Origin: Actinobacteria bacterium UBA4426
Lineage (GTDB): Bacteria > Actinomycetota > Actinomycetes > S36-B12
Assembly: GCA_002390705.1 (NCBI GenBank)
Contig: DGQA01000031.1
Coordinates: forward strand, 10,923-74,922
Length of the DNA stretch: 64,000 nucleotides
Direction: 5' to 3'
Shown here: positions 1 to 15,524 of the stretch, one piece after another
How positions within the stretch are numbered: the first letter of the stretch is position 1
How the letters are laid out: the number at the start of each line of letters is the position of its first letter
Position numbers and translations under genes: made by a program
Notes under the pieces: model-generated
The model's input: only the letters and a program-made list of their open reading frames with translations
The model's database searches: none
What the model was told of the DNA's origin: nothing

Positions 1-477
1 GAACAAGACATTATCCGCAACCATCAAGAGTGCGAAAGTTGCTATGCCCGCAGCCAATCCGCTGAGTCGCATCAAGAAAAGTCCAGTAATAAACGCGAGG
101 AACGCCCCGATCGCAACCGCAATGACCAAACTGGGGTAGATCCCCATATTGACCATCTTTAGTGGTTCCCACAGTTCGTCCAACACATTTTCTTTGATCC
201 GTACAGGCACTGTGAGAAGTCCCGAGGCAAAACCGCCGACCATAGCGAATGCGGCTTGGCCAAAAGACAGAACACCACTGTTACCGATGAGAACTTGAAG
301 GGCCAGCACCATGACAAGAAGTGCCAAGGTTCCTTCAGTAAGAAAAGCAAATGATGCCGACACTGAACTCGCAGCGTAGGCAACAATTACCACGACAAAA
401 ATTGGTCCGAGCAGTTGCTGCCACTGGAACCGGGTCACTCCGGGTAGTTGACTTGACGGCAGAAGATCGTTCGACAT
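1..477 (-). CDS. livM: Branched-chain amino acid ABC transporter permease (LivM-type), 5' part only; the gene runs off the window start
   Basis: Absent from the ORF track because it is open at the window edge. Hand translation of the minus strand from the ATG at 477-475 gives MSNDLLPSSQLPGVTRFQWQQLLGPIFVVVIVAYAAS...GQAAFAMVGGFASGLL..., an unbroken hydrophobic frame down to position 1. Its start overlaps the stop of the upstream LivH-type permease (TAATG). It is the fifth gene of a liv-type operon. Confidence 0.75.
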   Translation of the reverse strand, partial: MSNDLLPSSQLPGVTRFQWQQLLGPIFVVVIVAYAASSVSASFAFLTEGTLALLVMVLALQVLIGNSGVLSFGQAAFAMVGGFASGLLTVPVRIKENVLDELWEPLKMVNMGIYPSLVIAVAIGAFLAFITGLFLMRLSGLAAGIATFALLMVADNVLF

Positions 478-1349
478 TACACGCGCTCCTTGACTGCTTT
501 ATTAGAAATTAAGCCGCCAGGCCTCACCAACAAAACAATGATGACCAAAATGAAAAGCCAGGTGTACGTGTAAATTCGATAGTTACCCAAGAATGAGTTC
601 AGCAGACTGATCGTTGTGCCCACAGCGAAGCCGCCCAGTGCAGCTCCCTGGAGACTTCCAAGCCCACCAATCACAGTCCCCACGAGTGCCAGGATCGTGA
701 TGTTGACACCAAATAGTGGGTCGACCGACCCACGTTGGGTCACCAATACGAATGCAACCGCCGCCGCTAGTACGCCGCTGAAGACGAATGCAGCACCGAT
801 TACTCGGTTAGAGCGGACGCCGAGCAGCCGAGCTGTGTGAAAATCACTCGACGCAGCCCGAATTTGCAGACCGAGAGTTGTTTTCTCAATAAAGAACCAC
901 ATTCCACCAAGGAGTACCAGGGCAAGACCGATAGTCACCACACTACCGCGCGTAATCGTGGTGTCCCCGAACTCAATAACCCCGGTCATCCACGGTGCGA
1001 TTTGTCCCGAGAGTGGGAGTGCACCGAAAATCACTTCGTAGAGCCGCTGGAGGAACACGCTCACTCCGAAGGAAGCAATGAGTAGCACGGAGGGTTCAGC
1101 TAACCGTAATCTCTTGAAAACACTGAATTCCATCAGGAGAGCGAGGATGGCGGTTCCGGTTACGGCGATACCGATGCTTATGGGTAGGCCCAAGTCAATA
1201 GTTACTATTAATAGATAGGCTCCGATCGCGATCAGCTCACCGTGTGCGAAATTCACTAACCGCATGACACCAAAAACCAACCCAATTCCCAGTGCGGCTA
1301 ATCCGTACAGTCCACCGTAACTGAGTGCATCGAGGATTGTCTGAATCAT
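477..1349 (-). CDS. livH: Branched-chain amino acid ABC transporter permease (LivH-type)
   Basis: A 290 aa polytopic membrane protein (MIQTILDALSYGGLYGLAALGIGLVFG...NFAHGEL...), typical of LivH/BraD permeases. ATGA overlap with the upstream ATPase gene. Confidence 0.9.
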   Translation of the reverse strand: MIQTILDALSYGGLYGLAALGIGLVFGVMRLVNFAHGELIAIGAYLLIVTIDLGLPISIGIAVTGTAILALLMEFSVFKRLRLAEPSVLLIASFGVSVFLQRLYEVIFGALPLSGQIAPWMTGVIEFGDTTITRGSVVTIGLALVLLGGMWFFIEKTTLGLQIRAASSDFHTARLLGVRSNRVIGAAFVFSGVLAAAVAFVLVTQRGSVDPLFGVNITILALVGTVIGGLGSLQGAALGGFAVGTTISLLNSFLGNYRIYTYTWLFILVIIVLLVRPGGLISNKAVKERV

Positions 1350-2071
1350 TCGAGGTCCTCTCCAGTACCGAAATATGCTGCCGCAAGTTTTGCTTCATCT
1401 TGAGTGTCTTCGCGTGAAAGTGTTGCTCGCACCTGACCCTCACGGATGACAAGGGTGCGAGCGGCGATACTCATGACGAGGTGGGCGCGTTGCTCGACCA
1501 CAATAATTGCTGTTCCTTTTTCTTGAATTCGACTTAGCACACCGAACACATCTTGAATAACGGTCGGCGACAGGCCAAGACTTGGTTCATCCAGCATGAG
1601 GAGTTTTGGTTCGGAGACCAGTGCGCGGGCAATGGCGAGTTGTTGCTGTTGGCCACCACTGAGCAATCCTGCCTGATAGTTCCTATGGGTGGTAAGAACC
1701 GGAAATAAGTCAATTACTTCTTCGATTGCCTTCTGGGCTCCAGATTTTTCTCGTCGACCGGTGAGCCCTAAACGAAGGTTTTCATTGACGGTGAGGTCCG
1801 TGAAAATCGCGCGTCCCTCGGGCACTAAGGCCAGTCCTAATCGAACAATGTCTTCTGGGTTTTTGCTGCGGATTGATTCACCCTCGAATTCAATAGTTCC
1901 ATGGGACGCTTTCACAGCCCCAGCAATCGCGCCGAGGAACGTTGATTTTCCTGCACCATTGGGTCCAACGATTCCTACAAGCTCACCGGATTCGACATTA
2001 ATGTTTCCGTCAAAAAGAACGTGAACTTTGCCGTATCCTGCCTGAAGGCCTTTCACGTTAAGCAGGCTCAT
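1346..2071 (-). CDS. livF: Branched-chain amino acid ABC transporter ATP-binding protein (LivF-type)
   Basis: Walker A GPNGAGKST, ABC signature LSGGQQQ and Walker B LLMLDEPS. ATGA overlaps with both neighbouring genes. Confidence 0.9.
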   Translation of the reverse strand: MSLLNVKGLQAGYGKVHVLFDGNINVESGELVGIVGPNGAGKSTFLGAIAGAVKASHGTIEFEGESIRSKNPEDIVRLGLALVPEGRAIFTDLTVNENLRLGLTGRREKSGAQKAIEEVIDLFPVLTTHRNYQAGLLSGGQQQQLAIARALVSEPKLLMLDEPSLGLSPTVIQDVFGVLSRIQEKGTAIIVVEQRAHLVMSIAARTLVIREGQVRATLSREDTQDEAKLAAAYFGTGEDLE

Positions 2072-2814
2072 GCGCGACCGCCGTGCAAACCCATGGTGGC
2101 GTCACCTAAATAAGCTGTTAGCACTCCTTCATCGACTAATGCGTCGTGTGGTGTTCCTTCAAAGAGCATTTCACCTGAGGCTAGAACAAATACCCGTGTG
2201 CACGCATCAGCAACTAGGCCAACATTATGTTCGATCAACAACATCCCACAACCAGATTCGACGCGAATTGTTTCAAGAGCTGCAAGGAGGACGGGGGTTT
2301 CTTGGTCATTGAGGCCTGCGGCTGGCTCATCCATAATCAGGTAATCGGGGTTTGCTGTTAGTGCGCGTGCTAGACCCACTAGGCGAGAAAGCCCGTGGGA
2401 GAGCCCGCCAGCAGAATCAGTCCTTACCCCACCCAGGCCCAGTAATTCAATGGCATCAAGTGCCCGGCGGTTTGCTTTTTTAGTAGATTCCCCTGCGCCA
2501 ATTGCGCCCAGCACAATGTTCTCGGTAACAGAAAGCTCGGTAAAGAGTCGGCCAGATTGAAAAGTGCGTGCGAGGCCTGCTCGTGTACGAGCTTCAGGAG
2601 TGAGTCCATCGAGGCTGCGGCCATCCATGGAAACTGTGCCCGAATTTTGAGATTCATAACCCGCAATAATATTGACCAGTGTGGTTTTACCAGCACCATT
2701 GGGACCAAGAAGCCCCACTATTTCACCCTTGTTTACGGTGACGCTGACGTCTTCGAGCACCTGAATTGCTCCAAAAGACTTGACGATCGACACAGCTTTA
2801 AGAATCTGTGTCAC
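2068..2814 (-). CDS. livG: Branched-chain amino acid ABC transporter ATP-binding protein (LivG-type)
   Basis: Walker A GPNGAGKTT, signature-like LSHGLSRLVGLARAL and Walker B YLIMDEPAAGL. Lies in operon context with the liv permeases. Confidence 0.9.
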   Translation of the reverse strand: MTQILKAVSIVKSFGAIQVLEDVSVTVNKGEIVGLLGPNGAGKTTLVNIIAGYESQNSGTVSMDGRSLDGLTPEARTRAGLARTFQSGRLFTELSVTENIVLGAIGAGESTKKANRRALDAIELLGLGGVRTDSAGGLSHGLSRLVGLARALTANPDYLIMDEPAAGLNDQETPVLLAALETIRVESGCGMLLIEHNVGLVADACTRVFVLASGEMLFEGTPHDALVDEGVLTAYLGDATMGLHGGRA

Positions 2815-2880
2815 AAATATCTCCTGATAATTTGAGATGAGAAGTTACTAATCCCAAGACCACGGTACCCAAGTTGTGTA

Positions 2881-2919
2881 GCGGGCTGACGGAGTGAATT
2901 TCACGCTCCATCAGCCCGC
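2881..2919 (-). terminator. Intercistronic stem-loop between the binding-protein gene and the ATPase gene (attenuating terminator or mRNA stabiliser)
   Basis: Arms gcgggctgacggag (2881-2894) and ctccatcagcccgc (2906-2919) form a 14-bp stem with one mismatch and an 11-nt loop. It begins 9 nt after the binding-protein stop. No clear U-tract follows on the minus strand. Confidence 0.4.
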
Positions 2920-2927
2920 TCGTGCAA

Positions 2928-4196
2928 CTAGTTGAGAATTGGCTGCTCTGCAGCGCGGTACTCAATGAATGAGTGGGATCCGTCTTGCACTTGCATGACT
3001 GCCATCGGGCGAGTCACGTTAACGTGCAATTGCGGTGAGAAGCTCGTTGGTCCCGCGGTGAGATCAACGTTGTCGAATGCTTCCAACGCTGCTGCCAGAT
3101 CGGCACCATTTGTGGAACCAGCCTGCTCGGCTGCGAGTGCGAATGCTTCAATGCTTGAAGCTCCCGTGACTAGTCCACTGGTTGCCGCATCATTGCCAGT
3201 GAGACCCTTATAAGCCGACAGTAGTTCGGCGACCTTTGGATTGGGATCGTCACCGAATACGGATGCATATGTCACGAAGTAGAAATTAGACAGATCCGGA
3301 ACAGCTCCGAGCCAGAAAGCACCATCCATGCCAAAACCGGACACGACTGGTGTTTCAACGCCACCTGCTCGCAGTGCTGCTGCTGCTTCAGCGCCGCCAC
3401 CAGGGTAGGAGCACAGTGCAACAACATCAGGATTTGAATCCTTGATTTCCTTGACCTGCGCGGTCACAGGTGCTGCAAGTGAGCCTTCAGGTGTTTGGCT
3501 AAATTCAGGTGCCGACACAATTTCGCCACCCAATTGGATCCAGCGCTCTTCAAATACTTTGCACTGGTTTTGGGTGTATTTGATTGACATGTCTTTAAAT
3601 AGTGATGCCTTTGGACCAAATTCTTCAAATGCCCATTCGGCCATGATCGCTGCTTCACCCGGAACTGCAGATCCGAGCGAGAAGCCCAGTGTCAATCCTG
3701 CATCCGGTCCCATGATCGTGTCACCGACACAGGGAGCGATAACTAAGACGCCAGCGTCTTGAGCAACCTGGGAGGCTTTAGCGTTGATGTCGTAGTCGCA
3801 GGTCACAAGCATTAGCTGTGCACCCTGATCAATCAGATCCGTGGCGATTTGTGCCCCCTTGTCAGGGTTTGTTTCACCATCAACCTCAATGAGTTCTAGT
3901 TGACAGCCAAGAACGCCGCCAGCAGCATTGGTTGCATCAATTGCAATGCGCGCAGTGTCGAGCGCCGGTACATCGAACGGTGACATGAAGCCGGTTTGGG
4001 CCATGGCGGATCCGATCAAAATAGGCTCGGTGCATTCTTCAGCTACTTCTTCAGCTACTTCTTCAGTTGCTGTTTCTGCGGCTGTTGTCTCTGCCGTTGT
4101 TTCCTCTGCAGAGTCTGTGGTTGAGGCGCAGCCAGCGAGCACAAGGCTCAGGCTTGCAGCGACCGCGAGGATTCCCGCGGCTCTTCTATTCTTCAT
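2928..4196 (-). CDS. ABC transporter substrate-binding lipoprotein (Leu/Ile/Val-binding family)
   Basis: N-terminal signal peptide with lipobox LVLAGC, followed by an acidic T/E/A-rich linker (TAETTAAETATEEVAEEVAEE). A 422 aa periplasmic-binding-protein-like body. First gene of the liv-type operon. Confidence 0.8.
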   Translation of the reverse strand: MKNRRAAGILAVAASLSLVLAGCASTTDSAEETTAETTAAETATEEVAEEVAEECTEPILIGSAMAQTGFMSPFDVPALDTARIAIDATNAAGGVLGCQLELIEVDGETNPDKGAQIATDLIDQGAQLMLVTCDYDINAKASQVAQDAGVLVIAPCVGDTIMGPDAGLTLGFSLGSAVPGEAAIMAEWAFEEFGPKASLFKDMSIKYTQNQCKVFEERWIQLGGEIVSAPEFSQTPEGSLAAPVTAQVKEIKDSNPDVVALCSYPGGGAEAAAALRAGGVETPVVSGFGMDGAFWLGAVPDLSNFYFVTYASVFGDDPNPKVAELLSAYKGLTGNDAATSGLVTGASSIEAFALAAEQAGSTNGADLAAALEAFDNVDLTAGPTSFSPQLHVNVTRPMAVMQVQDGSHSFIEYRAAEQPILN

Positions 4197-4237
4197 CTGT
4201 TCTCCCTAGGTGTCGGTCCAGTTAACTGTGTGTCCCT

Positions 4238-4266
4238 ATTTATGCCACAATTCTGCCGTACGTCAA
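4238..4266 (-). promoter_or_regulatory. Candidate sigma-70-type promoter of the liv-type operon
   Basis: On the minus strand, TTGACG (4266-4261) is followed by a 17-nt spacer and ATAAAT (4243-4238). This is about 40 nt upstream of the RBS GGGAGA and the ATG at 4196. Confidence 0.35.
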
Positions 4267-4324
4267 GAAAACGACATGATTTGATGCCATATTGTCACCT
4301 AATTCGGTGCAGAATGCGGGCTTT

Positions 4325-4741
4325 TCACGTTTTTGCCAGAAAAGACTTGACAGTTGACTCTGGCCAAGGCTGCGAACCGCCACTGGGATCGGGGAAATGA
4401 ACGGCGGTGTGGCGCCCTTCAATACAGAGACCCCCCTCCAGATTTTCCACCACGAATCCAAAAGACACCGAAGATCGACCCACCGCAATCACACCCACAG
4501 TGACATTTACTTCCTGGTTGAACCAGATCCGTTCGCGGTAATCCACTTCAACGTGCACCCGGGGAATTGCACCGGTCAACTCTGTGGGGAGCCCAATCGA
4601 ACGTCGAAGTTCATGCTCTACTTCCTCTAACCATCGGATTGCAACGGAGAAGTGGTTATGGCCAGCGGCATCCGTATCCGCCCACTCCAACCGTTTAAGG
4701 ACCATTATCGACGCCCCGGTGATCTCTGCTTTGACAGACAT
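4325..4741 (-). CDS. Hotdog-fold acyl-CoA thioesterase (4HBT/YbgC-like)
   Basis: 138 aa, containing RLEWADTDAAGHNHFSVAIRWLEEVEHE. The conserved Asp and overall pattern match 4HBT-type thioesterases. A paralogue lies at 45728-46162. Confidence 0.7.
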   Translation of the reverse strand: MSVKAEITGASIMVLKRLEWADTDAAGHNHFSVAIRWLEEVEHELRRSIGLPTELTGAIPRVHVEVDYRERIWFNQEVNVTVGVIAVGRSSVSFGFVVENLEGGLCIEGRHTAVHFPDPSGGSQPWPESTVKSFLAKT

Positions 4742-4974
4742 GTGCGCATGGTAACAACAGGTGGCCGCTTTATGAGAGTGGAAATACGCTTACCACCGAG
4801 TCTGAATAATGCGGCTTGGTCCATCGACTTCTTGTGAAACGACAATCCGATCTGGGAATCGTTCCTTTATTTCGCTCACGTGGCTAATTACCCCGATGGT
4901 TTGACCGCCTGAGAGTGAGGTCGTCGAACGAGGGTCTGCCATTGATTCATCCATCACACTGATTCCAAGACCGG
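4709..4974. repeat. Left copy of a diverged direct repeat (thioesterase 5' end, intergenic spacer and sbcC 3' end) flanking the GC-rich block
   Basis: In my hand alignment, 4709-4912 matches 12702-12905 with 25 mismatches in 204 positions and no indels. 4913-4974 matches 13077-13138 with 7 mismatches in 62. The left copy lacks the 171 nt that correspond to 12906-13076. Confidence 0.85.
4790..4974 (-). pseudogene. sbcC: sbcC 3'-terminal fragment (truncated, with an internal deletion)
   Basis: The translation ...GLGISVMDESMADPRSTTSLSGGQTIGVISHVSEIKERFPDRIVVSQEVDGPSRIIQTRW parallels the C-terminus of the intact SbcC at 12783-15524 (...GLGISVMDESTGEPRPTTSLSGGETFY...GGRTIGVISHVSEMKDRFPDRIVVSREIDGPSRIIQTRS). 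It lacks the 57 codons between the two SGG sites and everything upstream. Confidence 0.85.
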
Positions 4975-5084
4975 CTGTCGACCTCGCTGGTCGTCTCCGC
5001 ACCGCCGTCTCCGTCGTTGCTGCCGCAGGCCACGGCTGCCCCTAGAAACACCACGCAGCTGAGAGCTGCCAGAAATCACTTCAT
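4975..5084 (-). pseudogene. Lipoprotein signal-peptide remnant (5' gene fragment with an in-frame TGA)
   Basis: The minus strand from the ATG at 5084 reads M K * F L A A L S C V V F L G A A V A C G S N D G D G G A E T T S E V D S. This looks like a signal peptide with lipobox AVAC, but codon 3 is TGA (5078-5076). The frame also runs out of frame into the sbcC fragment at 4974. Confidence 0.45.
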
Positions 5085-5191
5085 TGCCTACGCCTCTGAT
5101 CATTGACACACACCCAGATGAATGTCCATTTGATTCTTACTAATTACCGAACCATGTGTCAACGATCACAAAGAATCAATCGCAGTGATTC

Positions 5192-6163
5192 TCAGACGAA
5201 CCGCAGCACGGTCTTGCCCAGACTCTTCCGATCGAGCATTGCGCGCATGGCTGCGGCGATGTCTTCGACCGGAACGATCTGACGCACGTCGGGTCGGACC
5301 GCTCCTGATTCGACCAGCGGCATCAGTTCGTCCCACTGCTGCCGCGCGAACCCTGGATGCGCGCGCGTCCACGGACCCCAGGCAACACCGGAGACGTCGA
5401 TGTTCGCGAGTAGCAGGCGGTTCAGCCGGACCGACGGAATCTCGCCGGCGACGTACCCCAACGAGAGTAGCCGGCCACCGATGGTCAGCGAGCGCAAAGA
5501 CTCCAGCACGACCTGGTCGCTCCCGATCACATCGAGGACCACGTCCGCACCGAGGCCGCCAGTGAGGTCGCGGACGCGCTCGGCGCTGGCGCCCTCGATG
5601 ATCTCGTCGGCTCCCATCGTGGTCGCGAATGCGGCCTCCTCGGCCGAGGACACCATGCCGATCACCCTGCAGCCGAGACCGGCGGCGATCTGCACGGCGG
5701 CGGACCCGACACCGCCGGCCGCGCCGTTGACGACGACGACGGACCCCGGGCGGACCCGCGCCCGCACGGCCAAAGCGAAATGAGCAGTGAGGTAGTTGAG
5801 GGGCATCGCGGCGCCCTGATTGAAGTTGAGCGACTGCGGGAGCGGGAAGACCCGTTCGGACGGCACGGCGACCACCTCGGCCGCACTTCCGTACGCCGAC
5901 CAGCCGGCCACTCGGTCACCGGCAGTGAACCCGAGCGCTGCCGCGTCCTGGGAAACCACCCCTGCGAAGTCGACGCCAAGGACGAAGGGCACCTCGGGCT
6001 TGATCTGGTAGCGACCCTCGCTCATCAGTAGGTCGGGGTAGGAAAGGCCGACACTGTGCACCTCGATCAGAACCTCGTCCTCGCCGGCCACAGGAGCAGG
6101 ACCGATCTCGCCAACCCGAACGCCGTCGGGCCCATCCAGTGCGACGACCTGGGCAGCCCTCAT
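5192..6163 (-). CDS. NADPH:quinone oxidoreductase / zinc-type alcohol dehydrogenase superfamily (MDR) protein
   Basis: The true start is MRAAQVVALDGPDGVRV... (ATG at 6163-6161), forming an ATGA overlap with the upstream CoA-transferase stop. Contains the Rossmann motif AAGGVGSAAVQIA. The 133-aa Arg/Pro-rich N-terminal extension in the ORF track is read-through of the upstream gene. Confidence 0.85.
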   Translation of the reverse strand: MRAAQVVALDGPDGVRVGEIGPAPVAGEDEVLIEVHSVGLSYPDLLMSEGRYQIKPEVPFVLGVDFAGVVSQDAAALGFTAGDRVAGWSAYGSAAEVVAVPSERVFPLPQSLNFNQGAAMPLNYLTAHFALAVRARVRPGSVVVVNGAAGGVGSAAVQIAAGLGCRVIGMVSSAEEAAFATTMGADEIIEGASAERVRDLTGGLGADVVLDVIGSDQVVLESLRSLTIGGRLLSLGYVAGEIPSVRLNRLLLANIDVSGVAWGPWTRAHPGFARQQWDELMPLVESGAVRPDVRQIVPVEDIAAAMRAMLDRKSLGKTVLRFV

Positions 6164-7257
6164 CGGACCCAGCCGGTGAGCACATCCGAGACCGTCACAG
6201 GGCGAGCTCCAGGGGGTATCGGTGTGGTGGTGGTGGATCGGCTGAAGCGAGGTGCTGGCGCCGGTTGCGCTACCCCGTCGAGCTCGACGTAGGCGGACCG
6301 GCTGCGGGCATGCGCATCCTGGAGGGCCTCGCTGAAGGTGAGGACCGGAGTCGCGCAAGCGTCGGACCCCTCGAAGACCTGAGCCCAGGCATCGCGGGAA
6401 CGGTTGGCGACAGCGGCGGTGATCCGTTCGCGTATCCCCGGCCAGGCCGCGCGGTCGTATTGGTCGCCGATGGTGTCGGGATCGATCTCGAGGTTGGCCA
6501 GCAGGATCGCGAAGAACTTCCGTTCGATCGCGCCGATGGCCAGGTAGCGACCGTCCAAACAAGTGTAGGTGTCGTAGAAGGGCGCGCCTCCGTCCAGGAG
6601 GTTACTCTGCCGCTCCTCCGACCAGGTGCCGGCACCGCGCATCGCCCACATCTTCTGGGCGATGATGCCGATCCCGTCGACCATGGCGGTGTCGACGACC
6701 TGTCCGTGTCCGGACCGCTCCCGCTCCCAGAGCGCCGCCAGCAAGCCGGTCACCAGAACCATCGAGCCGCCGCCGTAGTCGCCTAGCAAGGTGAGCGGAA
6801 CCGGTGGTGGTCGGTCGGCCTCGCCGAGCGCGTGCAGGACGCCGGTTGCCGCCAGGTAGTTCAGGTCGTGGCCGGCCGACATCGCCAGAGGGCCCTCGCG
6901 CCCCCAGCCCGTCATCCGGCCGAGGACCAGCCGGGGGTTCAGCTCCTGCAGTTCCTGTGGCCCCAGACCCATTCGTTCCAGGACGCCGGGCCGGAAGCCT
7001 TCGAGGAGGACGTCGGCGTTTCGGCAGAGCTCGCGTAGGTCCTGCAGTCCGGCCGCGGACTTGAGATCGAGGGTCGTGGTGCGCCGGCCGCGCAGGACAT
7101 GGTCGACCGAGCCGGCCAGTTCGGCCATAGGCGAAGCTCCCGGCCTGTCGATCCGGACGACGTCGGCACCGAGGTCGGCTAGCACCATGGCGGAGTGCGG
7201 CACGGGTCCCAGCGCCGCCAGTTCCAAGACGCGGAGGTCGCTGAGCGGCCCTGTCAA
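6160..7257 (-). CDS. Family III CoA-transferase (CaiB/BaiF/Frc family)
   Basis: The N-terminus (L)TGPLSDLRVLELAALGPVPHSAMVLADLGADVVRIDRPG is the canonical family III motif. The proposed TTG start at 7257-7255 forms a TTGA overlap with the MaoC stop. The longer ORF-track version overlaps the upstream gene. Confidence 0.8.
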   Translation of the reverse strand: MTGPLSDLRVLELAALGPVPHSAMVLADLGADVVRIDRPGASPMAELAGSVDHVLRGRRTTTLDLKSAAGLQDLRELCRNADVLLEGFRPGVLERMGLGPQELQELNPRLVLGRMTGWGREGPLAMSAGHDLNYLAATGVLHALGEADRPPPVPLTLLGDYGGGSMVLVTGLLAALWERERSGHGQVVDTAMVDGIGIIAQKMWAMRGAGTWSEERQSNLLDGGAPFYDTYTCLDGRYLAIGAIERKFFAILLANLEIDPDTIGDQYDRAAWPGIRERITAAVANRSRDAWAQVFEGSDACATPVLTFSEALQDAHARSRSAYVELDGVAQPAPAPRFSRSTTTTPIPPGARPVTVSDVLTGWVR

Positions 7258-8114
7258 AGGAGGCCTCGGAAGTAGGCCTGGGCTTGGAGGTGAGTCTGAC
7301 CGGAGGGCCGGGCCACGTGGATCACGAAGCGGCGGGTGGCAGGGGCGGGCACCTCGTAAATGCGGTAGGTGAGAGCGTCGCCTGGCCATGCCTGAGCTTT
7401 CCAGCGGCAGACCAGTCGAGTCAGGTGGGCGGTGTCGTCGAGAGTCGAGAGAAGGGTGCCGACGACGCCGGCAGTCAGCATTCCGACTGCGAACGGACCG
7501 GGGTAGCCGCCGGCCTCGGCGAAGGCTTGGTCGTGATGGATCGGGTTGAAGTCTCCCGATGCCCCTTGGTACCGGACGAAGTCGGTGATGGTGAGCGGTT
7601 CGTCGGTCAACGCGAGGACTAGTTCATGGTCCTCAGGAGCGGACCAGGTCGGAACAACTGCCGTCGGGACAGTCCCGGGCGAACTCTGTTCGAGGAGGAT
7701 CGAGGTGGCACGCAGACTCGCCACCACGTCGTTTCCGCCAATGGGGACGAAGTTGGTGACGGTTTCTGTGAACTCCATCGTCCCGCGTCCACCGGGCTTC
7801 TCGTAGACCCGGTCGATGCGCTCGATGCCGGTCAACTCCGCGCCGATCGCGGGCGGGCCGGTGGAAAAGGTGAACTCCTGCTCCCCGTGCAGCACCCGGC
7901 GGTAGTCGCGATCGATGCCGTGCCAGGCGCTGTCTTCGGGCGCCAGCCAGAACCGGGCTGAGGCCAGAAAGGTCACCGGCGAGCAGACCGGGTGCGGCTG
8001 GTCCTTGGTCCAGGAGGTCGGGCGGGTCGCTCGGTGGAACTCTCGGCACTTTCCCAGCTCAACCGGCATCCGAAACGGTCGTCCGGTGCGACCAGCTAGG
8101 TCGCTCGTCGTCAT
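7254..8114 (-). CDS. Double-hotdog MaoC-like (R)-specific enoyl-CoA hydratase/dehydratase
   Basis: The C-terminal half carries the MaoC motif YQGASGDFNPIHHDQAFAEAGGYPGPFAVGML. The N-terminal half is a second hotdog-like domain. Confidence 0.8.
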   Translation of the reverse strand: MTTSDLAGRTGRPFRMPVELGKCREFHRATRPTSWTKDQPHPVCSPVTFLASARFWLAPEDSAWHGIDRDYRRVLHGEQEFTFSTGPPAIGAELTGIERIDRVYEKPGGRGTMEFTETVTNFVPIGGNDVVASLRATSILLEQSSPGTVPTAVVPTWSAPEDHELVLALTDEPLTITDFVRYQGASGDFNPIHHDQAFAEAGGYPGPFAVGMLTAGVVGTLLSTLDDTAHLTRLVCRWKAQAWPGDALTYRIYEVPAPATRRFVIHVARPSGQTHLQAQAYFRGLL

Positions 8115-8184
8115 GCTGCTGTCCGGCGACGGGGTGGAACATCCGAGCGCCCAGTGGAGGGTCGGGCGCCCGCTTGGCTTGATG

Positions 8185-9690
8185 TCAGCGAAGCGGCCAC
8201 TGGATGTGCTTCACCTGGAAGAACTCGCGGAAACCGTCCTCGCCCATCTCGCGGCCGAAGCCGCTGAGGCCGAAGCCGCCCCAGGGTCCCTCGGGCCTCA
8301 TGAAACCGCCGCCGTTGACGGTGACCGCTCCGGTCCGCAAGCGAAGAGCGAGCTGATGTGCCTCGGCGGGCTCGCCGAAGACGGCGGCATGCAGCCCGTA
8401 CGGAGAGTCGTGGGCGATGGCGAGCGCCACCTCGACGTCATCGTAGGGGAGCAATGTTCCGACCGGACCGAAGAGCTCCTCCTGGCAGATGAGGTCGGAG
8501 TTGTTGACGTTGCCGATGATCGCCGGGTTCATGAAGTAACCCGGAAGCCCTTCAGGGCGTCCGCCGCCGGCGACGAGTGATCCGCCGCGCTCCAGGGCTC
8601 CGTTGAGGTGACCCTCTACGAAGTCGCGTTGCTCCGCCCTGATCAGCGGTCCGAGGTCGGTGTCCTCGGCCCATGGCGAACCCACCTTCATCTCGGCCAT
8701 GAATCGGAAAGCGGCGTCGGCGTACTCGTCATACATGGCGCGCGGCACTAGGGTCCGTGTCGTGGCTCCGCAGCCCTGTCCGGAGTTCCGGGCGAACCGG
8801 TAGATGCTGTTCGCTACGACGTCGTCCACGTCTGAGCCCGGCAGGATGATCGAGGCAGACTTACCACCCAGCTCGAGGACCAGGCGCTTGGTTGTATGGG
8901 CCGCGGCCTGCATGATGTGCCGGCCGACCGCCAGTGAACCAGTGAACATCACCATGTCGACGTCGGGGTGAGAGCTGAGGGTCTCACCCACGTCGCCGTC
9001 TCCCATCACGAAGTTGACTACGCCCTGGGGGAGGTCCGCTCTCTCGACGAGCCGCATGAACGCCAAGGTCGCCAGCGGCGTCCGCGGGGAGGGCTTGAAG
9101 ACCAGGGAGCAGCCGGCAGCCAGACCGGGCCCGAGCTTCCAGGCGACCGAGTTAATCGGGAAGTTGTAGCCGGTGATCCCGGCGACCACCCCGACCGGGA
9201 TCCGCTGCAGCAGCGAGTTGCTGGCCGGTGGACCCAGGTGCGGCGGGAGGCCCTCCTGGTAACCGCCGTGGGGGCCCTTCAGAGCCATGTCGGCGGCCCA
9301 TCGCAGGTTGCCGATCGGCATCCCGACCTGCATCGCCCGGGTGAGCCCGATGGGGGTGCCGACCTCCGTCACGATGATCTCGGCCAGCTCCTCGCGGTGC
9401 CGATCCATGATATCGGCGATCTGGAGGATCACTTCCGAGCGCTCCCGGGGAGTGGCGTCCTTCCACGGCCCTAAGTCGAAAGCCCTGCGAGCAGAGGCGA
9501 CCGCGCGCTCGGCCTGGGAGGTCGTGGCGTTGGCGACGGTCCGGATCTCCTCGGTGGTGCTCGGGTTAACGATGTTCAACCGAGTGTCGGCGTCACCGTC
9601 CTCCCATGTGCCGTTGATCCAGTTGGTCGGCCCGTCGATGAGGGCCTGGGCAGCGGGGCTCAGAGTGCGGGCGAGGTCGTTCGTGGTCAT
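8185..9690 (-). CDS. NAD(P)-dependent aldehyde dehydrogenase
   Basis: Contains ALDH motifs FTGSLAVGRHI, LELGGKSA and the catalytic-Cys region NSGQGCGATTR. The likely start MTTNDLARTL (ATG at 9690-9688) lies 2 nt after the upstream SDR stop. Confidence 0.9.
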   Translation of the reverse strand: MTTNDLARTLSPAAQALIDGPTNWINGTWEDGDADTRLNIVNPSTTEEIRTVANATTSQAERAVASARRAFDLGPWKDATPRERSEVILQIADIMDRHREELAEIIVTEVGTPIGLTRAMQVGMPIGNLRWAADMALKGPHGGYQEGLPPHLGPPASNSLLQRIPVGVVAGITGYNFPINSVAWKLGPGLAAGCSLVFKPSPRTPLATLAFMRLVERADLPQGVVNFVMGDGDVGETLSSHPDVDMVMFTGSLAVGRHIMQAAAHTTKRLVLELGGKSASIILPGSDVDDVVANSIYRFARNSGQGCGATTRTLVPRAMYDEYADAAFRFMAEMKVGSPWAEDTDLGPLIRAEQRDFVEGHLNGALERGGSLVAGGGRPEGLPGYFMNPAIIGNVNNSDLICQEELFGPVGTLLPYDDVEVALAIAHDSPYGLHAAVFGEPAEAHQLALRLRTGAVTVNGGGFMRPEGPWGGFGLSGFGREMGEDGFREFFQVKHIQWPLR

Positions 9691-9692
9691 GG

Positions 9693-10463
9693 TCACCGTG
9701 CGAGGAACCCTCCGTCGACGGGCAGGGCGACGCCAGTTACCCAACTCGCGTCGTCACTGGCGAGGAAGGCCGCTGCGCTGGCGATCTCCTCGGGTGCTGC
9801 CGCTCGGCCCATCGGGACCGACGCCTTGTATGTGGCCTTGAGGTCTTCGATGTCGGCGCCGTTCTCCCGACCGAAGAACTGCGAGAGCATCGGCGTCTCG
9901 ATCATCGCAGGCAGGATCGCGTTGGAGCGGATCCCCTCAGGACCGAGCCGGACGGCGAGCGACTTCATGAACAGCACGATGCCTCCCTTGGACATCGAGT
10001 ACAACGGGCTGAACGGCGAGCCGACCACCCCGGAGACCGACGACGTGAACAGAATCGATCCCTTGCCTTCGGCTTTCTGGATCAACGGCAACGCGAACTG
10101 GGTCGCGTAGAACGCGCTGCGCTGATTGACGTTGATGAGCTTCTCGAAATCGGCCGATTCGATGTCGAGCCCGGCCGCACCTGGAATGCCGGCGTGGTTG
10201 AAGAGCACGTGTAAAACTTTGAAGTCCCGGGCCACTTGATCGATCATCGAGCGGATCTGATCGTTGTCCCCGACGTCGCAGACGATCGCGGTGGCAGCAC
10301 CGCCGGCTTCCTCGATCTCGGTGACGACAGCCTTCGCCGCGTTTTCGTCGATGTCGGAGACGACGACGTGCGCGCCCTCGCTAGCGAAGCGCACGGCGCT
10401 CGCCCTGCCCATCCCTGAGCCACCCGCTGTGATCAGCGCGACCCTGTTTTCAAGTCGTCTCAC
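9693..10463 (-). CDS. Short-chain dehydrogenase/reductase (SDR)
   Basis: GTG start at 10463-10461, preceded by RBS GAAGGAG. Cofactor motif ITAGGSGMGRA and the catalytic Y-x3-K (YSMSKGG). The ORF-track N-terminal extension of 82 aa is spurious. Confidence 0.85.
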   Translation of the reverse strand: MRRLENRVALITAGGSGMGRASAVRFASEGAHVVVSDIDENAAKAVVTEIEEAGGAATAIVCDVGDNDQIRSMIDQVARDFKVLHVLFNHAGIPGAAGLDIESADFEKLINVNQRSAFYATQFALPLIQKAEGKGSILFTSSVSGVVGSPFSPLYSMSKGGIVLFMKSLAVRLGPEGIRSNAILPAMIETPMLSQFFGRENGADIEDLKATYKASVPMGRAAAPEEIASAAAFLASDDASWVTGVALPVDGGFLAR

Positions 10464-10521
10464 ACTCTTACTCCTTCGATTCTCCGTGTCGGGCGCTCTC
10501 CCCTGGGTGTGTTCGGTGTGG

Positions 10522-10722
10522 TCAGCGGACCTTGTAGCCGCCGTCGGCCACCAAGGCGTGCCCGGTGACGTAGGAGGAGCTCTCCGAGCACAGCCATGCG
10601 ACGGCCTGGGCGATTTCGGCAGGCTTGCCGATCCGGGTGAGGACGCAACCGATCCGGTCGATGTACTCGGCGTCGGACTCGGTGCTGCCCTTACGGCGGC
10701 GAGCAGCAATCGGGGTGTCCAT
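10522..10722 (-). pseudogene. C-terminal fragment of a second SDR gene
   Basis: ...RIGKPAEIAQAVAWLCSESSSYVTGHALVADGGYKVR matches only the last 45 or so residues of an SDR. The Rossmann and catalytic parts are absent, and nothing upstream encodes them. Confidence 0.6.
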
Positions 10723-11037
10723 CACTCTCCTCTTTCCTTGGACATCCATGGAGGGGTCCCACGGTTGAACCCACTCACAAATTCAGTCTTGGCATGCCCT
10801 ATCATTATCATCAATTGTCGCCGCCAAGTCAAGCCTCCGACAAGTCATCATCGATAAGCCATTTCTCATCCCTGAGGATGCTCACCATTACCCGGGCACT
10901 CTTAAGTGGGACACGGAGAGTGTTATGCGGCTGGTTTCGTGAGTCTCGTCGGGGGTTGGTCATGGCACAAATTTCGTGGCTACAGTCACCATGTAATCGC
11001 ACGCCAAAGCAAGAGCCGGAACGAGGAGTGCCGAACT

Positions 11038-12672
11038 ATGAGGAGCTACCGGGGGCTGATCGTCCCCTTCGAGAATCCCCTTGACTGGACTCTCGCCAAG
11101 GTGCTGCGCCACCAGGCCTGCGAACGACCCAACAAGGTCTACCTCGATGCCCCCGAGGAGGGCGTCACGATGACCTACGGTGAGACGCTCGACGCGGCAG
11201 AGGCCGTCGCTCGGTCGCTCTGTGCCACCGGATCGACATACGGCGACCGCGTGATGATCCTGGCCCAGAACTCCTCGCAGCTGGTGCTCACCTGGTTTGG
11301 TACGGCAGTTGGCGGCTTCGTCGAGGTTCCGATCAACACCGCGTACGAGTTCGACTTCCTTGCCCACCAGATCCGGACCGCGCAACCGACGGTCGCCATC
11401 ATCGACGACCGATTCGCGCACCGCTTCGTCTCCATCAAGGAGGACTGCGCCGGGCTCGAGCGGTTCTGGGTCATCGACAACGGTGAGCTCGACACCGCCC
11501 TAAAGACGTTGAGAGACGCCGGCTGGGCAGCAGAGCCTTGGGACGACCTGCTCACCCGTCGGGAGGCAGAGCTGCCTGAGGTTGTGGCTCGTGACCTGGG
11601 GGCGATCTTCTTCACCTCCGGCACGACCGGGCCTTCGAAGGGTGTGGCGATGTCGCACTCGCAGTTCTACTTCGACGCGGTCGAGTGCTACAACCTGACT
11701 CGGCTCACCAGTGAAGACACCTACATGGTGACTACGCCGCTCTTCCACGGCAACGCTCAGTGGCTCGCCGCGTACCCGGCGCTGGTCGCGGGCGCCCGCT
11801 TCGTACTCCGGCGTAAGTTCAGCGCGAGCCGCTGGATCGACTGGGTGCGCGAGAGCGGAGTCACGGTCACGAACTTCCTCGGCGTGATGATGGACTTCGT
11901 GTGGAAACAACCAGTGCGCGAGGACGACGCCGACAACCAGTTGCGGTGCATCTTTGCAGCCCCGACGGCCAGCTCGATCGTGGACGGGTTCCGGCAGCGC
12001 TTCGGAGTCGAGGCGTTCGTGGAGGTCTTCGGACTCACCGAAGTTTCCATGCCGATCCTTTCGCCGTATGGCGAGGACCGGCCGGCCGGCGCCGCCGGGC
12101 TGGCCGTGAACGAGTGGTTCGACATCCAGCTGGTCGACCCCGAGACCGACAAGGAGGTGGCCATCGGCGAGGTCGGAGAGCTGGTCGTCCGGTCCAAGTA
12201 CCCATGGACACTAAGCAACGGCTACCACGGCGCCCCAGAGAAGACCCTGGAGGCGTGGAGAAACCTGTGGTTCCACACTGGAGATGCACTGCGCCGGGAC
12301 GAGGAAGGCTGGTATTACTTCGTCGACCGCTACAAGGACGCGCTCCGGCGACGCGGCGAGAACATCAGCTCGTACGAGATCGAGCAGGCAGTGCTTTCTC
12401 ACCCCAATGTCTTGGAGTGCGCCGTGATCGCGGTCCCGGCGACGATCGAGGCCGGCGAGGACGAGGTGATGGCCTGCGTGGTCACCGATGGGATGATCGA
12501 ACCGGTAAAGCTCTACGCGTTCTGCTCGACGAAGATGCCGTCGTTCGCGCTTCCCCGGTTCATCCGCGTCCTTCCCGAGCTGCCGAAGACGCCCTCGGAG
12601 AAGGTGCAGAAGTCTGAGCTGCGCGCAGCAGGAGTCACCGCCGACACCTTCGATTGGGAGGCTGCCGGGTGA
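11038..12672 (+). CDS. AMP-forming acyl-CoA synthetase/ligase (ANL superfamily)
   Basis: ATG at 11038 preceded by GAGGAG. AMP-binding signature FFTSGTTGPSKGV, and later GELVVRS...YHG...WFHTGD...GENISSYEIE. The C-terminal Lys region is LPKTPSEKVQK. Confidence 0.85.
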   Translation: MRSYRGLIVPFENPLDWTLAKVLRHQACERPNKVYLDAPEEGVTMTYGETLDAAEAVARSLCATGSTYGDRVMILAQNSSQLVLTWFGTAVGGFVEVPINTAYEFDFLAHQIRTAQPTVAIIDDRFAHRFVSIKEDCAGLERFWVIDNGELDTALKTLRDAGWAAEPWDDLLTRREAELPEVVARDLGAIFFTSGTTGPSKGVAMSHSQFYFDAVECYNLTRLTSEDTYMVTTPLFHGNAQWLAAYPALVAGARFVLRRKFSASRWIDWVRESGVTVTNFLGVMMDFVWKQPVREDDADNQLRCIFAAPTASSIVDGFRQRFGVEAFVEVFGLTEVSMPILSPYGEDRPAGAAGLAVNEWFDIQLVDPETDKEVAIGEVGELVVRSKYPWTLSNGYHGAPEKTLEAWRNLWFHTGDALRRDEEGWYYFVDRYKDALRRRGENISSYEIEQAVLSHPNVLECAVIAVPATIEAGEDEVMACVVTDGMIEPVKLYAFCSTKMPSFALPRFIRVLPELPKTPSEKVQKSELRAAGVTADTFDWEAAG

Positions 12673-12689
12673 TGGCGAGAAGCCTCGCG

Positions 12690-12734
12690 TCACCAGACGA
12701 ACGACGCCCCGGTGATCTCCGTTTTGACAGAAAT
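12690..12734 (-). pseudogene. Remnant of the thioesterase 5' end (right-hand repeat copy)
   Basis: Reads I S V K T E I T G A S F V W *, against MSVKAEITGASIMVLK... in the intact gene at 4741. The start codon position is ATT instead of ATG. Homology ends at 12702. Confidence 0.7.
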
Positions 12735-13138
12735 GTGGTCAGGGTATCAACAGGTGACTGCATTCAGTGAGTAGAAATACGACTACGACCGAGTCTGAAT
12801 AATGCGGCTTGGTCCATCGATTTCTCGAGAAACGACAATCCGGTCTGGGAATCGGTCCTTCATTTCGCTCACGTGGCTAATTACTCCGATGGTTCGACCG
12901 CCTGATTTAAGTTGATCTAGTTGGTCGAGCACTCGCTCTAAAGTTTCTGTGTCAAGAGAACCAAATCCTTCGTCAACAAAAAGAGTCTCGAGTGAAACCC
13001 CGCCAGTCTCACTTTGAACTACATCAGCTAAACCCAAAGCCAGTGATAAGGACGCATAAAAAGTTTCACCGCCTGAGAGCGAGGTCGTCGGACGAGGCTC
13101 TCCCGTTGATTCATCCATCACACTAATTCCGAGACCGG
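12702..13138. repeat. Right copy of the diverged direct repeat (thioesterase 5' remnant, intergenic spacer and the 3' end of intact sbcC)
   Basis: See the left copy at 4709-4974. It contains two 8-bp direct repeats, ccgcctga (12898-12905 and 13069-13076), that delimit the segment missing from the left copy. Confidence 0.85.
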
Positions 13139-15524
13139 TGTTCCCGCGACCGGTAGCGTCTTCATCAAGAAGAAATGACAACCGGCCGCTACTCATTTTG
13201 CGTAAGTGAATTGATGCCGATTCCAATACGTGGGCAAATCGAAGTTGCAGCGCGTAGCTCTCTAAAGTTAATTTTTTGGTATTTACGGAAGACTTTGCGG
13301 TAACAATTGCCCCCAAAGAAACTGATTCAGCCAGGTTGATGGAAAGTTTTTCCACACCTTTTTTTTCTTTCACGAATTTCTTCACCAGAGTCGATACCGA
13401 CTTGGCGGTACTTAACGCGATGGTGTGACTATCTTCGGCCTTTTTGACCACTTCCTGCGCTTGCGTGAGTTCAGCCTTCACTTTGTCGAATTTTGCAGAG
13501 AATTCGTGACTATTAATGTGCAGGACCTCAGGGGAAAGTGTCTTGGCCATCGAATCAAATTCGTGTTGCGCATCGAGCCATCCACTCAACCGAGTGTTAC
13601 TAGTTTCAAGCTTAATGAGAGTGTCCGAAGGATTTTCGTCGACACCTATCAACTTCGCTAGATCTGATTCTTTTTGTTTGACCTCAGCATCGAATTCAAA
13701 CAATTGTGTGCGCGAAATCTCAAGCTCTTGCTCTACTAGCACTCGTGCATCAGCACTAGTCTTATATTCGAGATCTAGTTGTATGAGTTTTGCTTGTAAA
13801 CGTTCGCTTTGTTCCAATAGATTCCGCTTGAGCGTTATCTCTGCTTCTAATTGGGCCAGAACTGTCGCTACGTCTTTGGGTGAACTACCTGACACTTTTC
13901 CGTTCAACGTGGCCAGCTCTATTTTTGCTTGTGATACCTCAGAATTTCGCGCCTCTACCTTCATTTTCTGATCGTTTCGCAGTGTCCTAGCGGTTTTTAA
14001 CCCATTTTCCAACGACTCTAATACACGATCGGTAATGAGTTCTATCCCCACTTCGCCGCTTGCAGGTCGCGGGTGATGAAGGGAACCACACACTGCACAA
14101 GGCTCTCCGTTTGCCAATTCACTAGCCAGTACTGCGACTCGATGCTCAAGTTGTGTGCGCTGCGCTTGAGAGAGTGCGAGTTCTGATCGGGCTACTTCGT
14201 ACTCGCACTTCTGTAGTTCCAATTGGTACTGTGTGAGTTCTTCACCCAATTGCAAATGATAGGCCTCTGCTTTTTCCAACTGAGTGAGTAGTTGGGAAAT
14301 TTTTTTCTGAATTTCTACTTGCTCTTCCAATTCACTTATCTGCATTGCAGCACCAGTTGATACTGAAATTTCTTCTTTCATTTCAATAGCTAATCGCGGG
14401 TAATCCGCAATAGAGTCGGTGAGTTTCGTGCGGTGCATTTCTTTTTCGTTTAATTCCGCGACCAACTTCTCCCGCCGAGATGTGCGCTTCGTCACCGCGA
14501 TTTGCCAATCAACCAACGGCTTTAACTGACCAATGAGCTCGTGGTTTGCGACAATTAACCCAGGAACTTTATCTAGTGAGAGTTCCCGCTCATCCGACCC
14601 TAATTTGTCTCGAGTTTCCTTGACCAGTCCCTCGAGTTGAATTAATTTCCCGAGTTTTTCCTGGATATCAATGAGATCATTAAATTGGATGTGAAGGGGC
14701 TCAGCGAATAACCTCGCTTCTTCCTTATGTGATTCAGCATTTTGTGCCGTTAGTTCAAAATGGTTATTCACTTCTTGGGTGATAGTAATTGCATCACTCG
14801 GGTGTGAATCAACGAGTTCATCAACTCGCTCATGTAAGTCGCTTGGGTCAGAGTCACTCAACATTCCTTGAATCTGGACGGCGATATCCCTGATTGCTGA
14901 GTGAGCACTCTCGATCGCGAACTCTGCTTGTTTCCCACGTTGGTCCAGCTCGCTCTGCAATTGTGCATAAAAGTTGTCTCCCAGTAAATCTCGTAATGCC
15001 TTCAGTCGATCGCTTGGATTCATGCGTAACAACGCAGCGAATTCACCTTGGGCCAAGACAACGAGTTGCCGAAACTGCTGGGCATTTAAGTGCAGTAGAT
15101 CTGTGAGGTAGCTGCCAATCTCTGTGGCGTGGGTGAGTGCAAAATCTTGCTCCCCAGTGGAATCAAATCTGATTAATGACTGGGTCGCTGCGCGTTTGGT
15201 CTCGCCAGTTCCGTCTTCTCTGACAAATAAGTATGGAATCCCACGAATAATCTTGTGCCTAATTCCATTAACCGAGAAATCGAGCACTATCTGTGAACGT
15301 TCAGGTCCTTCGCTGTAATCACTGCGTATTCGGTCTTTTGCCGACTCCTGCCCGCTTAAAGTGCTGAATAATGCGTAGGTGATCGAGTCAATGATCGTGG
15401 TCTTGCCGGTCGCGGTGGGTCCGTCAATTAGGAACAGGCCTGCAGAACTGAGCTCATCAAAATTGACCACCTGCTTGTCACGAAACGGGCCGATCCCAGT
15501 AATTTCAAGTGCATGAATCCTCAC
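12783..15524 (-). CDS. sbcC: SbcC/Rad50-family DNA double-strand-break repair ATPase
   Basis: 913 aa. N-terminal Walker A GPTATGKTT, long coiled-coil, zinc hook CAVCGSLHHP, C-terminal signature SLSGGE and Walker B LFVDEGFGSLD. GTG start forming a GTGA overlap with sbcD. Confidence 0.9.
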   Translation of the reverse strand: MRIHALEITGIGPFRDKQVVNFDELSSAGLFLIDGPTATGKTTIIDSITYALFSTLSGQESAKDRIRSDYSEGPERSQIVLDFSVNGIRHKIIRGIPYLFVREDGTGETKRAATQSLIRFDSTGEQDFALTHATEIGSYLTDLLHLNAQQFRQLVVLAQGEFAALLRMNPSDRLKALRDLLGDNFYAQLQSELDQRGKQAEFAIESAHSAIRDIAVQIQGMLSDSDPSDLHERVDELVDSHPSDAITITQEVNNHFELTAQNAESHKEEARLFAEPLHIQFNDLIDIQEKLGKLIQLEGLVKETRDKLGSDERELSLDKVPGLIVANHELIGQLKPLVDWQIAVTKRTSRREKLVAELNEKEMHRTKLTDSIADYPRLAIEMKEEISVSTGAAMQISELEEQVEIQKKISQLLTQLEKAEAYHLQLGEELTQYQLELQKCEYEVARSELALSQAQRTQLEHRVAVLASELANGEPCAVCGSLHHPRPASGEVGIELITDRVLESLENGLKTARTLRNDQKMKVEARNSEVSQAKIELATLNGKVSGSSPKDVATVLAQLEAEITLKRNLLEQSERLQAKLIQLDLEYKTSADARVLVEQELEISRTQLFEFDAEVKQKESDLAKLIGVDENPSDTLIKLETSNTRLSGWLDAQHEFDSMAKTLSPEVLHINSHEFSAKFDKVKAELTQAQEVVKKAEDSHTIALSTAKSVSTLVKKFVKEKKGVEKLSINLAESVSLGAIVTAKSSVNTKKLTLESYALQLRFAHVLESASIHLRKMSSGRLSFLLDEDATGRGNTGLGISVMDESTGEPRPTTSLSGGETFYASLSLALGLADVVQSETGGVSLETLFVDEGFGSLDTETLERVLDQLDQLKSGGRTIGVISHVSEMKDRFPDRIVVSREIDGPSRIIQTRS

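Follow-up and report, generated by a model that had tools for sequence, protein, structure and literature searches.

Foreign catabolic genes between sbcC and a thioesterase gene of a planktonic actinobacterium, bracketed by decayed direct repeats of the target site

How does a block of foreign genes come to stand between two host genes, leaving both of them complete, when no recombinase accompanies it? The question is raised by a 64,000-nucleotide stretch of DNA from Actinobacteria bacterium UBA4426 (assembly GCA_002390705.1, contig DGQA01000031.1, positions 10,923 to 74,922), hereafter the window, whose flanks match Candidatus Nanopelagicales genomes from coastal and marine metagenomes and whose genome has about 50% GC. 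Between the DNA repair gene sbcC and the acyl-CoA thioesterase gene downstream of it lies an island of 7.7 kb (4975-12701) with a GC content of 60-71%, against about 44-55% outside, the sole such region in the 64 kb; GC at third codon positions is 0.79-0.85 in the island genes and 0.45-0.57 in the host genes. The explanation that we favor, with confidence a little above an even chance, is a single old entry of a high-GC cassette that duplicated its target, the two copies being nearly identical when formed and decaying later. The features on which this reading turns are the following, in coordinates of the window.

4325 to 4741, minus strand: intact acyl-CoA thioesterase gene of the left native flank (138 aa, 4HBT_2; open reading frame and Pfam PF13279).
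4709 to 4974, minus strand: left repeat copy, from its alignment to 12702-13138, comprising thioesterase codons 1-11 in use (4709-4741), the spacer (4742-4789) and a pseudogene stump of the sbcC 3' end (4790-4974).
4904 to 4912, no strand: scar of a 171-nt deletion in the stump, with one remaining 9-nt repeat, ACCGCCTGA.
12673 to 12701, no strand: 29-nt tail past the stop codon of the island's ligase gene, ending at the right junction (12701/12702).
12702 to 13138, minus strand: right repeat copy, comprising a thioesterase stump beginning with ATT (12702-12734), the spacer (12735-12782) and the functional 3' end of sbcC (12783-13138).
13139 to 13186, minus strand: extra 48 nt of sbcC attributed to the original duplication, gone from the left copy of the window and retained in the stump of a related contig, L072 (L072 5047-5167 aligns to window 13187-13067 at 90.9%).
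12783 to 15524, minus strand: intact sbcC of the right native flank (913 aa; open reading frame and Pfam AAA_23, SbcC_Walker_B).

The repeat pair is the defining feature of the locus. Local alignment of 4650-5050 with 12650-13200 matches the left copy to the right at 234 of 266 positions (88%, 32 mismatches), with a single gap of 171 nt, missing from the left copy, that separates two ungapped blocks: 4709-4898 with 12702-12891 (166/190 identical, BLAST E 2e-67) and 4899-4974 with 13063-13138 (68/76, E 3e-21). A direct-repeat search of 4200-13700 returned these two blocks as the sole long direct repeats. Read in minus-strand order, the repeat unit runs through the final ~118 codons of sbcC and a spacer of 48 nt into thioesterase codons 1-11, and it is present in single copy at the empty site of two related contigs, L002 and L016, in which the thioesterase gene comes immediately after sbcC. 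In the window neither flanking gene is truncated, and an sbcC stump and an 11-codon thioesterase stump, the latter with ATT in place of its ATG start, each face the island. An earlier note on this DNA had described direct repeats of ~88% identity with 32 differences in 266 positions and one 171-nt gap, the left copy joined to the intact thioesterase gene with an sbcC stump and the right copy joined to intact sbcC with an ATT-initiated stump; the alignment reproduces these figures exactly and the open reading frames agree with the layout. The predicted RNA fold of 12655-12800, across the right junction, is no better than that of shuffled sequences (z = -0.41), and consensus scans found no promoter-like or terminator-like sequence in the retained spacer.

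Could the arrangement be an artifact? The sharp step in composition at both junctions speaks for an assembly chimera or contamination of the genome bin, and the earlier note had named a chimeric contig as the outcome to check for. The junctions, however, recur across independent data. Contigs carrying a thioesterase protein identical to that of the window occur in 84 blocks of the collection; in the places listed for this protein (10 of 23 contigs) the island follows wherever the contig reaches far enough, and in all ten places listed for the identical SbcC (of 24 contigs) the island ligase follows. Four contigs from different projects (ERZ807166, ERZ23498568, JGI 3300045300 and JGI 3300025886) span the full order of sbcC, right repeat, island, left repeat and thioesterase at 99.98-100% identity, and six further contigs cross the left junction. 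Altogether the same junctions were found in more than a dozen assemblies, from varied projects and assemblers, at 99.9-100% identity, which disposes of the chimeric contig decisively. In addition, in two other carriers at 94-95% (L001 and L072) the island and flanks have diverged together, and the island is ameliorating in all three lineages. We leave an artifact next to no probability, the exact-protein look-ups on both flanks having ruled it out, and the island is confirmed as a real insertion.

The diverged carriers also indicate how often the island arrived. Besides the window they are L001, a metagenome-assembled genome (MAG ANT-21) whose island and two repeats are about 93% identical to those of the window, and L072, which is 94-95% identical to the window and to L001; pairwise divergence of the island among the three is 4.6-6.1%. 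The window, L001 and a further contig, L075, agree in the position of the right junction; there was therefore a single insertion, followed by lineage-specific decay on the useless side. In two contigs with a thioesterase 80% identical to that of the window (L003 and L017), the genes upstream of it encode a flavin monooxygenase, a short-chain dehydrogenase (SDR) and an AraC-type regulator instead of SbcC (L017 296-3741). The position is therefore variable in the wider clade, and the upstream side of the thioesterase gene is a synteny break and possibly a hot spot for accessory catabolic genes. With no sbcC upstream of the thioesterase gene, L003 and L017-L020 are unusable as outgroups for the repeat, and the contig of the 89% thioesterase lineage, L070, begins 84 nt upstream of the thioesterase gene, short of the island position.

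How much of the target was duplicated is best judged from L072, which retains ~95 codons of a lipoprotein gene at the left end of its island, joined to its sbcC stump at the motif GGCCGG; this stump reaches 48 nt further upstream than that of the window, to the equivalent of window 13186. This longer junction puts the original duplication at at least 485 bp, enough to take in ~135 codons at the end of sbcC, the spacer of 48 nt and thioesterase codons 1-11, rather than the ~437 bp of homology that the earlier note had read from the window, where the left boundary is a later deletion. Both the boundary at 4974/4975 and the 171-nt gap are such later deletions at microhomologies: the former matches the loss of DNA between an AGCCGG of the lipoprotein gene and an ACACCGG of the stump, and the latter is flanked in the right copy by exact 9-nt repeats, ACCGCCTGA on the plus strand, at 12897-12905 and 13068-13076, 171 nt apart. 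Numbering the repeat unit from window 13138 toward 12702 (u positions), L001 and L072 share another internal deletion, u73-u333, and L001 carries a further one between CGGTGGC repeats. The GGCCGG at the L072 junction, a candidate microhomology, is also present in native sbcC.

On the explanation that we favor, a high-GC actinomycete would have been the source of a cassette, at least 7.7 kb long, that entered once between sbcC and the downstream thioesterase gene, bringing a CoA ligase, two SDRs, an aldehyde dehydrogenase, a MaoC hydratase, a CoA-transferase, a quinone oxidoreductase and a solute-binding lipoprotein, and integration of the cassette would have duplicated at least 485 bp of the target, so that both flanking genes stayed whole with no recombinase of the island's own involved. 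Selection explains the survival of a product of the duplication type, since a simple insertion anywhere in the 485-bp stretch would have broken sbcC or the thioesterase gene. The sbcC stump would then have gained non-synonymous changes and lineage-specific microhomology deletions and the thioesterase stump would have lost its ATG; the lipoprotein gene and one SDR gene would have decayed to remnants, the other six genes being kept as their composition drifted toward AT, and the island would afterwards have been gained or lost among relatives by recombination in its flanks. As the route of entry we rank first, tentatively and at somewhat less than an even chance, a circular chimeric molecule that carried this segment of the target, derived from the recipient strain or one almost identical to it, and integrated by one homologous crossover. 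This Campbell-type route, which the earlier note had proposed, is plausible in that the topology is that of insertion-duplication, a product that other routes would give as well.

In Escherichia coli conjugation, single crossovers by circular plasmids that have partly lost their homology leave target duplications of 109-950 bp, and such duplications are commoner there than homology-facilitated illegitimate recombination (HFIR) (PMC3240628). The present locus resembles the Campbell-type insertion-duplications known from suicide plasmids and from these conjugation experiments in its direct repeats of one contiguous target segment, in the truncated copies toward the insert with intact genes outside, in needing no site-specific recombinase and in a repeat that, at at least 485 bp, lies within the 109-950 bp range (PMC3240628). 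It differs from them in being natural, ancient and of foreign composition, with no visible vector or circle, and in repeats that have decayed by 12% and through several deletions.

The divergence of the copies bears directly on the identity of the incoming molecule. The earlier note had offered two options, a homologous patch from a related but distinct lineage or an old event. Under the first, a Campbell-type circle would have carried a ~437-bp patch from a lineage ~12% divergent, and the topology, the hypervariable spacer copies, which differ by 21-27%, and three stump sites that agree with L002 and not with the functional copies of the window and L001 are in keeping with it. The codon-level pattern is not. 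The stumps carry 14 non-synonymous and 6 synonymous private changes (window 8:3, L072 6:3), as expected of neutral sequence, whereas the differences among the window, L001 and L002 in the functional end of sbcC are mainly synonymous (9 non-synonymous to 41 synonymous; Fisher p=6e-5), and the 16 sites that separate the functional 3' ends of the window and L001 are all synonymous. The stumps therefore changed after they ceased to encode SbcC. Furthermore, the stumps of the window and L072 share no derived stump-specific change over their 63 overlapping nucleotides, and four window stump changes in u1-63 are missing from L072 and so arose after insertion; over these 63 sites, the reconstructed original stump departs from native sbcC at no more than one (0-1). 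Ten sites join the window stump to the functional copies of the window and L001 against L002, the three already mentioned being the opposite, which argues for a patch from the carriers' own stem lineage. Together with a duplication of at least 485 bp instead of 437 bp, the codon-level changes and the second stump lineage in effect refute the 12%-divergent patch, which we regard as very improbable. The 12% divergence is thus best read as decay after insertion, the copies having been nearly identical when formed, and the alternative of an old event is borne out.

The spacer fits this less well, and it is one of several points that weigh against the explanation that we favor. Left and right spacer copies differ at 10-13 of 48 nt (21-27%), more than expected from the rate in the stumps, and this may reflect prior divergence of the patch or a later recombination that replaced the left spacer. 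The bound on the length of the stem comes from only 63 overlapping nt, and a patch from a strain a few per cent (about 2%) away is possible, a case that would fold into the explanation that we favor. As for the circle itself, the sequence holds no vector remnant, circle junction or replicon gene, and a foreign fragment has no obvious reason to carry ~0.5 kb of recipient DNA. Among the places listed for the identical thioesterase and SbcC proteins there is no empty site in the window's own lineage, and the reversibility expected of a Campbell-type insertion is therefore not seen there. Finally, the circle needs two illegitimate joins and a crossover, in comparison with two joins only for an insertion by template switching.

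The left spacer occurs in two types, one in the window and L070 and the other in L001 and L072, which points to later recombination. We also note two sites, u370 and u427 (window 12769 and 12712), at which a T is common to both copies of L001 and the left copy of L072 and at which both window copies, L070 and L002 have C. From these two sites only, the pattern could be due to gene conversion between the repeats within a lineage or to recombination with other lineages.

The economy of two joins is the attraction of a template switch or a bridging of sister chromosomes, in which a nascent strand, or two broken sisters, would have joined the fragment at thioesterase codon 11 and rejoined the chromosome ~485 bp behind, inside sbcC, by microhomology, giving the same product with neither a circle nor a homologous crossover. 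No host DNA would be required on the incoming molecule and the copies would be nearly identical at origin; the oldest recoverable left junction, that of L072, lies at a GC-rich motif of 5-6 nt, GGCCGG, also found in native sbcC; and the later rearrangements at the locus are all microhomology deletions of 4-9 nt, so such joining operates here. On the other side, the closest donor homologues have only 68-83% protein identity, which is too distant for microhomology on the donor side of the junction to be read, and a limited literature search found no experimental precedent for bacterial capture of foreign DNA in this way. We regard this route as unlikely, if a serious contender.

The same GGCCGG junction admits an origin in two steps. 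Here a simple insertion at thioesterase codon 11 would have been followed by repair of the gene through HFIR, a linear wild-type fragment (sbcC 3' end, spacer and thioesterase) recombining by a homologous crossover in or beyond the thioesterase gene and by an illegitimate join at GGCCGG in the lipoprotein gene, with removal of the former left part of the island. Such a history would account for a left end that cuts a gene in mid-sequence, would supply a selective reason for the second event, would tolerate a pre-existing difference between left and right spacers, and would match the 3-10 bp of microhomology and the accompanying deletion of HFIR (PMC3240628); recombination with relatives is, moreover, frequent in the left flank. 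It nevertheless requires two rare events, and its intermediate, an island with no left repeat and a broken thioesterase gene, was not found among the contigs examined. As it occurs in naturally transformable bacteria, HFIR resembles the present case in the recombinase-free capture of foreign DNA, in an insert of a few kilobases and in GGCCGG as candidate microhomology at the oldest left junction, but it normally replaces recipient DNA, with a deletion of similar size. The target is duplicated here, so HFIR fits only as the second step of the two-step origin, which we consider improbable.

That no recombinase accompanies the island, as the earlier note had stated, also holds after domain searches: Pfam finds no recombinase, integrase or transposase domain among the island genes, and the gaps between them leave no space for one. 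No tRNA gene lies within 35 kb of the island, the nearest being at 48.8-49.2 kb, and its ends have no terminal inverted repeats; in this and in the lack of a transposase domain it is unlike a transposon or insertion sequence. An integrative plasmid, integrative and conjugative element or prophage that inserted at the 3' end of sbcC, brought a replacement for that end and was afterwards deprived of its integrase deserves consideration, as genes have clearly been lost from the left end of the island and duplication of the target gene's 3' end is common to many integrative elements; as in integrase islands with att repeats, direct repeats from the 3' end of the target keep the gene intact. Known segments of att identity are roughly 15-110 bp long, however, and the present repeat is at least 485 bp and reaches through the spacer into the next gene. 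The island holds no integrase, excisionase, transfer or replication gene and has no associated tRNA, and entries in the plasmid database PLSDB cover at most 13% of it, at 65-68% identity. It is instead a purely metabolic cassette, wholly one catabolic cluster laid out as in chromosomal clusters on high-GC contigs. We accordingly give an integrase-driven origin hardly any credence.

Six metabolic genes and two gene remnants tile 4975-12701, with gaps of 29-312 nt.

4975 to 5084, minus strand: remnant of a lipoprotein solute-binding-protein gene at the left end of the island (read from the sequence: signal peptide and lipobox, in-frame TGA at codon 3, cut after ~37 codons).
5085 to 5191, no strand: AT-richer intergenic region inside the island, with two promoter-like (sigma-70-like) sites by consensus scan and the inverted repeat GATCATTGACACA / TGTGTCAACGATC.
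5192 to 6163, minus strand: gene 1, NADPH:quinone oxidoreductase-like zinc-type dehydrogenase, 323 aa (Pfam ADH_N, ADH_zinc_N; gene call in L059).
6160 to 7257, minus strand: gene 2, family III CoA-transferase, 365 aa (Pfam PF02515).
7254 to 8114, minus strand: gene 3, MaoC-like hydratase with double hotdog fold, 286 aa (Pfam PF01575, PF13452).
8185 to 9696, minus strand: gene 4, aldehyde dehydrogenase, 503 aa (Pfam PF00171).
9693 to 10463, minus strand: gene 5, SDR, 256 aa (Pfam adh_short).
10525 to 10725, minus strand: remnant of a second SDR, C-terminal 67 aa (tblastn, 67% identity to residues 204-270 of the 270-aa SDR adjoining the ligase in L073).
11038 to 12672, plus strand: gene 6, AMP-dependent acyl-CoA ligase, 544 aa (Pfam).

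The closest non-self homologue of the ligase, at 83% identity, is on a contig of 66.8% GC (L073), where it adjoins two SDR genes as in the island; the ligase is also 78% identical to a protein of Blastococcus. For the dehydrogenase (gene 1) the closest non-self homologue, at 68%, is on a contig of 64.6% GC (L066) that also holds homologues of the CoA-transferase, the MaoC hydratase and the ligase. Donor-like clusters in contigs of 65-67% GC thus have the same gene neighbors as the island, and the named relatives of the island proteins are high-GC actinomycetes at no more than 78% identity (Blastococcus, Pseudonocardiales, Nocardioidaceae and others). To judge from these relatives and neighbors, the cassette is a piece of a CoA-thioester catabolic cluster of a high-GC actinomycete. 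The searches with the quinone oxidoreductase and the ligase found no close donor, 68% and 83% protein identity being the best, and the lipoprotein remnant has no match in L066, in L069 or in the window outside the island. The N-terminal ~200 codons of the second SDR are gone, and the island therefore shrank internally after its arrival. In the intergenic region at 5085-5191, the arms of the inverted repeat GATCATTGACACA / TGTGTCAACGATC stand about 46 nt apart and are conserved in L001 and L072, and the sigma-70-like sites lie upstream of the dead lipoprotein gene; an operator and promoter may have been retained in this region, reading at present toward the thioesterase gene.

Between the window and L001 the island genes have synonymous divergence (dS) of 0.12-0.21, a ratio of non-synonymous to synonymous rates (omega) of 0.05-0.15 and zero stop codons, with dS of 0.16-0.28 in the adjacent host flank genes. 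It follows that the cassette is functional and has diverged along with its immediate flanks, and the low omega indicates purifying selection on all six genes. When substitutions are polarised by the odd one out among the three carriers, strong-to-weak changes outnumber weak-to-strong changes 240 to 88 in the island, compared with 180 to 164 in the flank, and the implied equilibrium GC of the island is about 0.43 versus 0.68 now, so that amelioration toward AT is under way in all three lineages. As an observation on its own account, sbcC (window 12783-15524 against L001 and L002) evolves unusually fast for a core gene, with omega of about 0.27-0.28 and a nucleotide identity to L002 of 79-84% over most of its length versus 88-94% in the neighboring genes.

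After its entry the island was moved, or was lost, by recombination. The comparison of L001 with L002 covers the left flank only, and there the two are 97-100% identical from window ~3546 outward (to 1), whereas beside the island L001 resembles the window more (92-98%) than it does L002 (88-93%). Backbones that are almost the same therefore occur both with the island and lacking it, and a recombination breakpoint lies in a solute-binding-protein gene of the host flank. This pattern indicates that the island was later gained or lost between related lineages through homologous recombination in flanking core genes. The left flank as a whole (1-4741) is a recombination mosaic, in which the window differs by 7-15% from both L001 and L002 beyond ~3546.

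As far as the portion of PMC4033161 drawn on here describes them, flexible genomic islands of aquatic streamlined bacteria are exchanged by homologous recombination in conserved flanks. The present island agrees with that description (PMC4033161, same portion) in its presence or absence at a fixed locus, in genomes 97-100% identical further out, in a breakpoint within a flanking core gene and in the different genes that L017 holds upstream of the thioesterase gene. It departs from that framework, which in the portion drawn on covers swapping and not first entry (PMC4033161), in that the scar of entry is legible here. A bolder possibility, to which we attach little likelihood, is that the repeats act as portable homology arms, recombination between them releasing a circle of the island and one repeat that could re-enter any related genome by a single crossover. 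Under such a reading, the left-spacer types (the window like L070; L001 and L072), set beside the one right-copy type, would record separate re-integrations.

Two observations elsewhere in the window and in the empty-site lineage are reported for completeness. The nearest tRNA genes, tRNA-Ala(TGC) and tRNA-Ile(GAT), stand side by side on the minus strand at 48798-49176; this pair is the usual content of the spacer of a ribosomal RNA operon, and the window probably contains one. The DnaB reading frame has 862 aa in L002 (2015-4603) and L016 versus 460 aa in the window (16707-18089), and the ~1.19 kb of extra in-frame sequence in the empty-site lineage is consistent with a candidate intein.

Taken as a whole, the locus is a tidy natural instance, well preserved, of an event of known type, and it implies no new molecular mechanism. 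Its interest lies in the organisms concerned. Streamlined planktonic bacteria have few mobile elements, and the first entry of foreign genes into their genomes is rarely visible; here, three lineages keep different stages of decay, such that the junctions, the relative age, the amelioration and the spread by flank recombination can be read from sequence alone. The locus also carries a caution, in that divergence between the repeats around an island can reflect the decay of a pseudogene and need not mean a diverged donor. If the repeats did serve as portable arms, they would give streamlined planktonic actinobacteria without classical mobile-element machinery a recombinase-free, self-contained means of passing on foreign metabolic cassettes that leaves sbcC and the thioesterase gene unbroken. 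The island offers a worked natural example of recombinase-independent gene capture.

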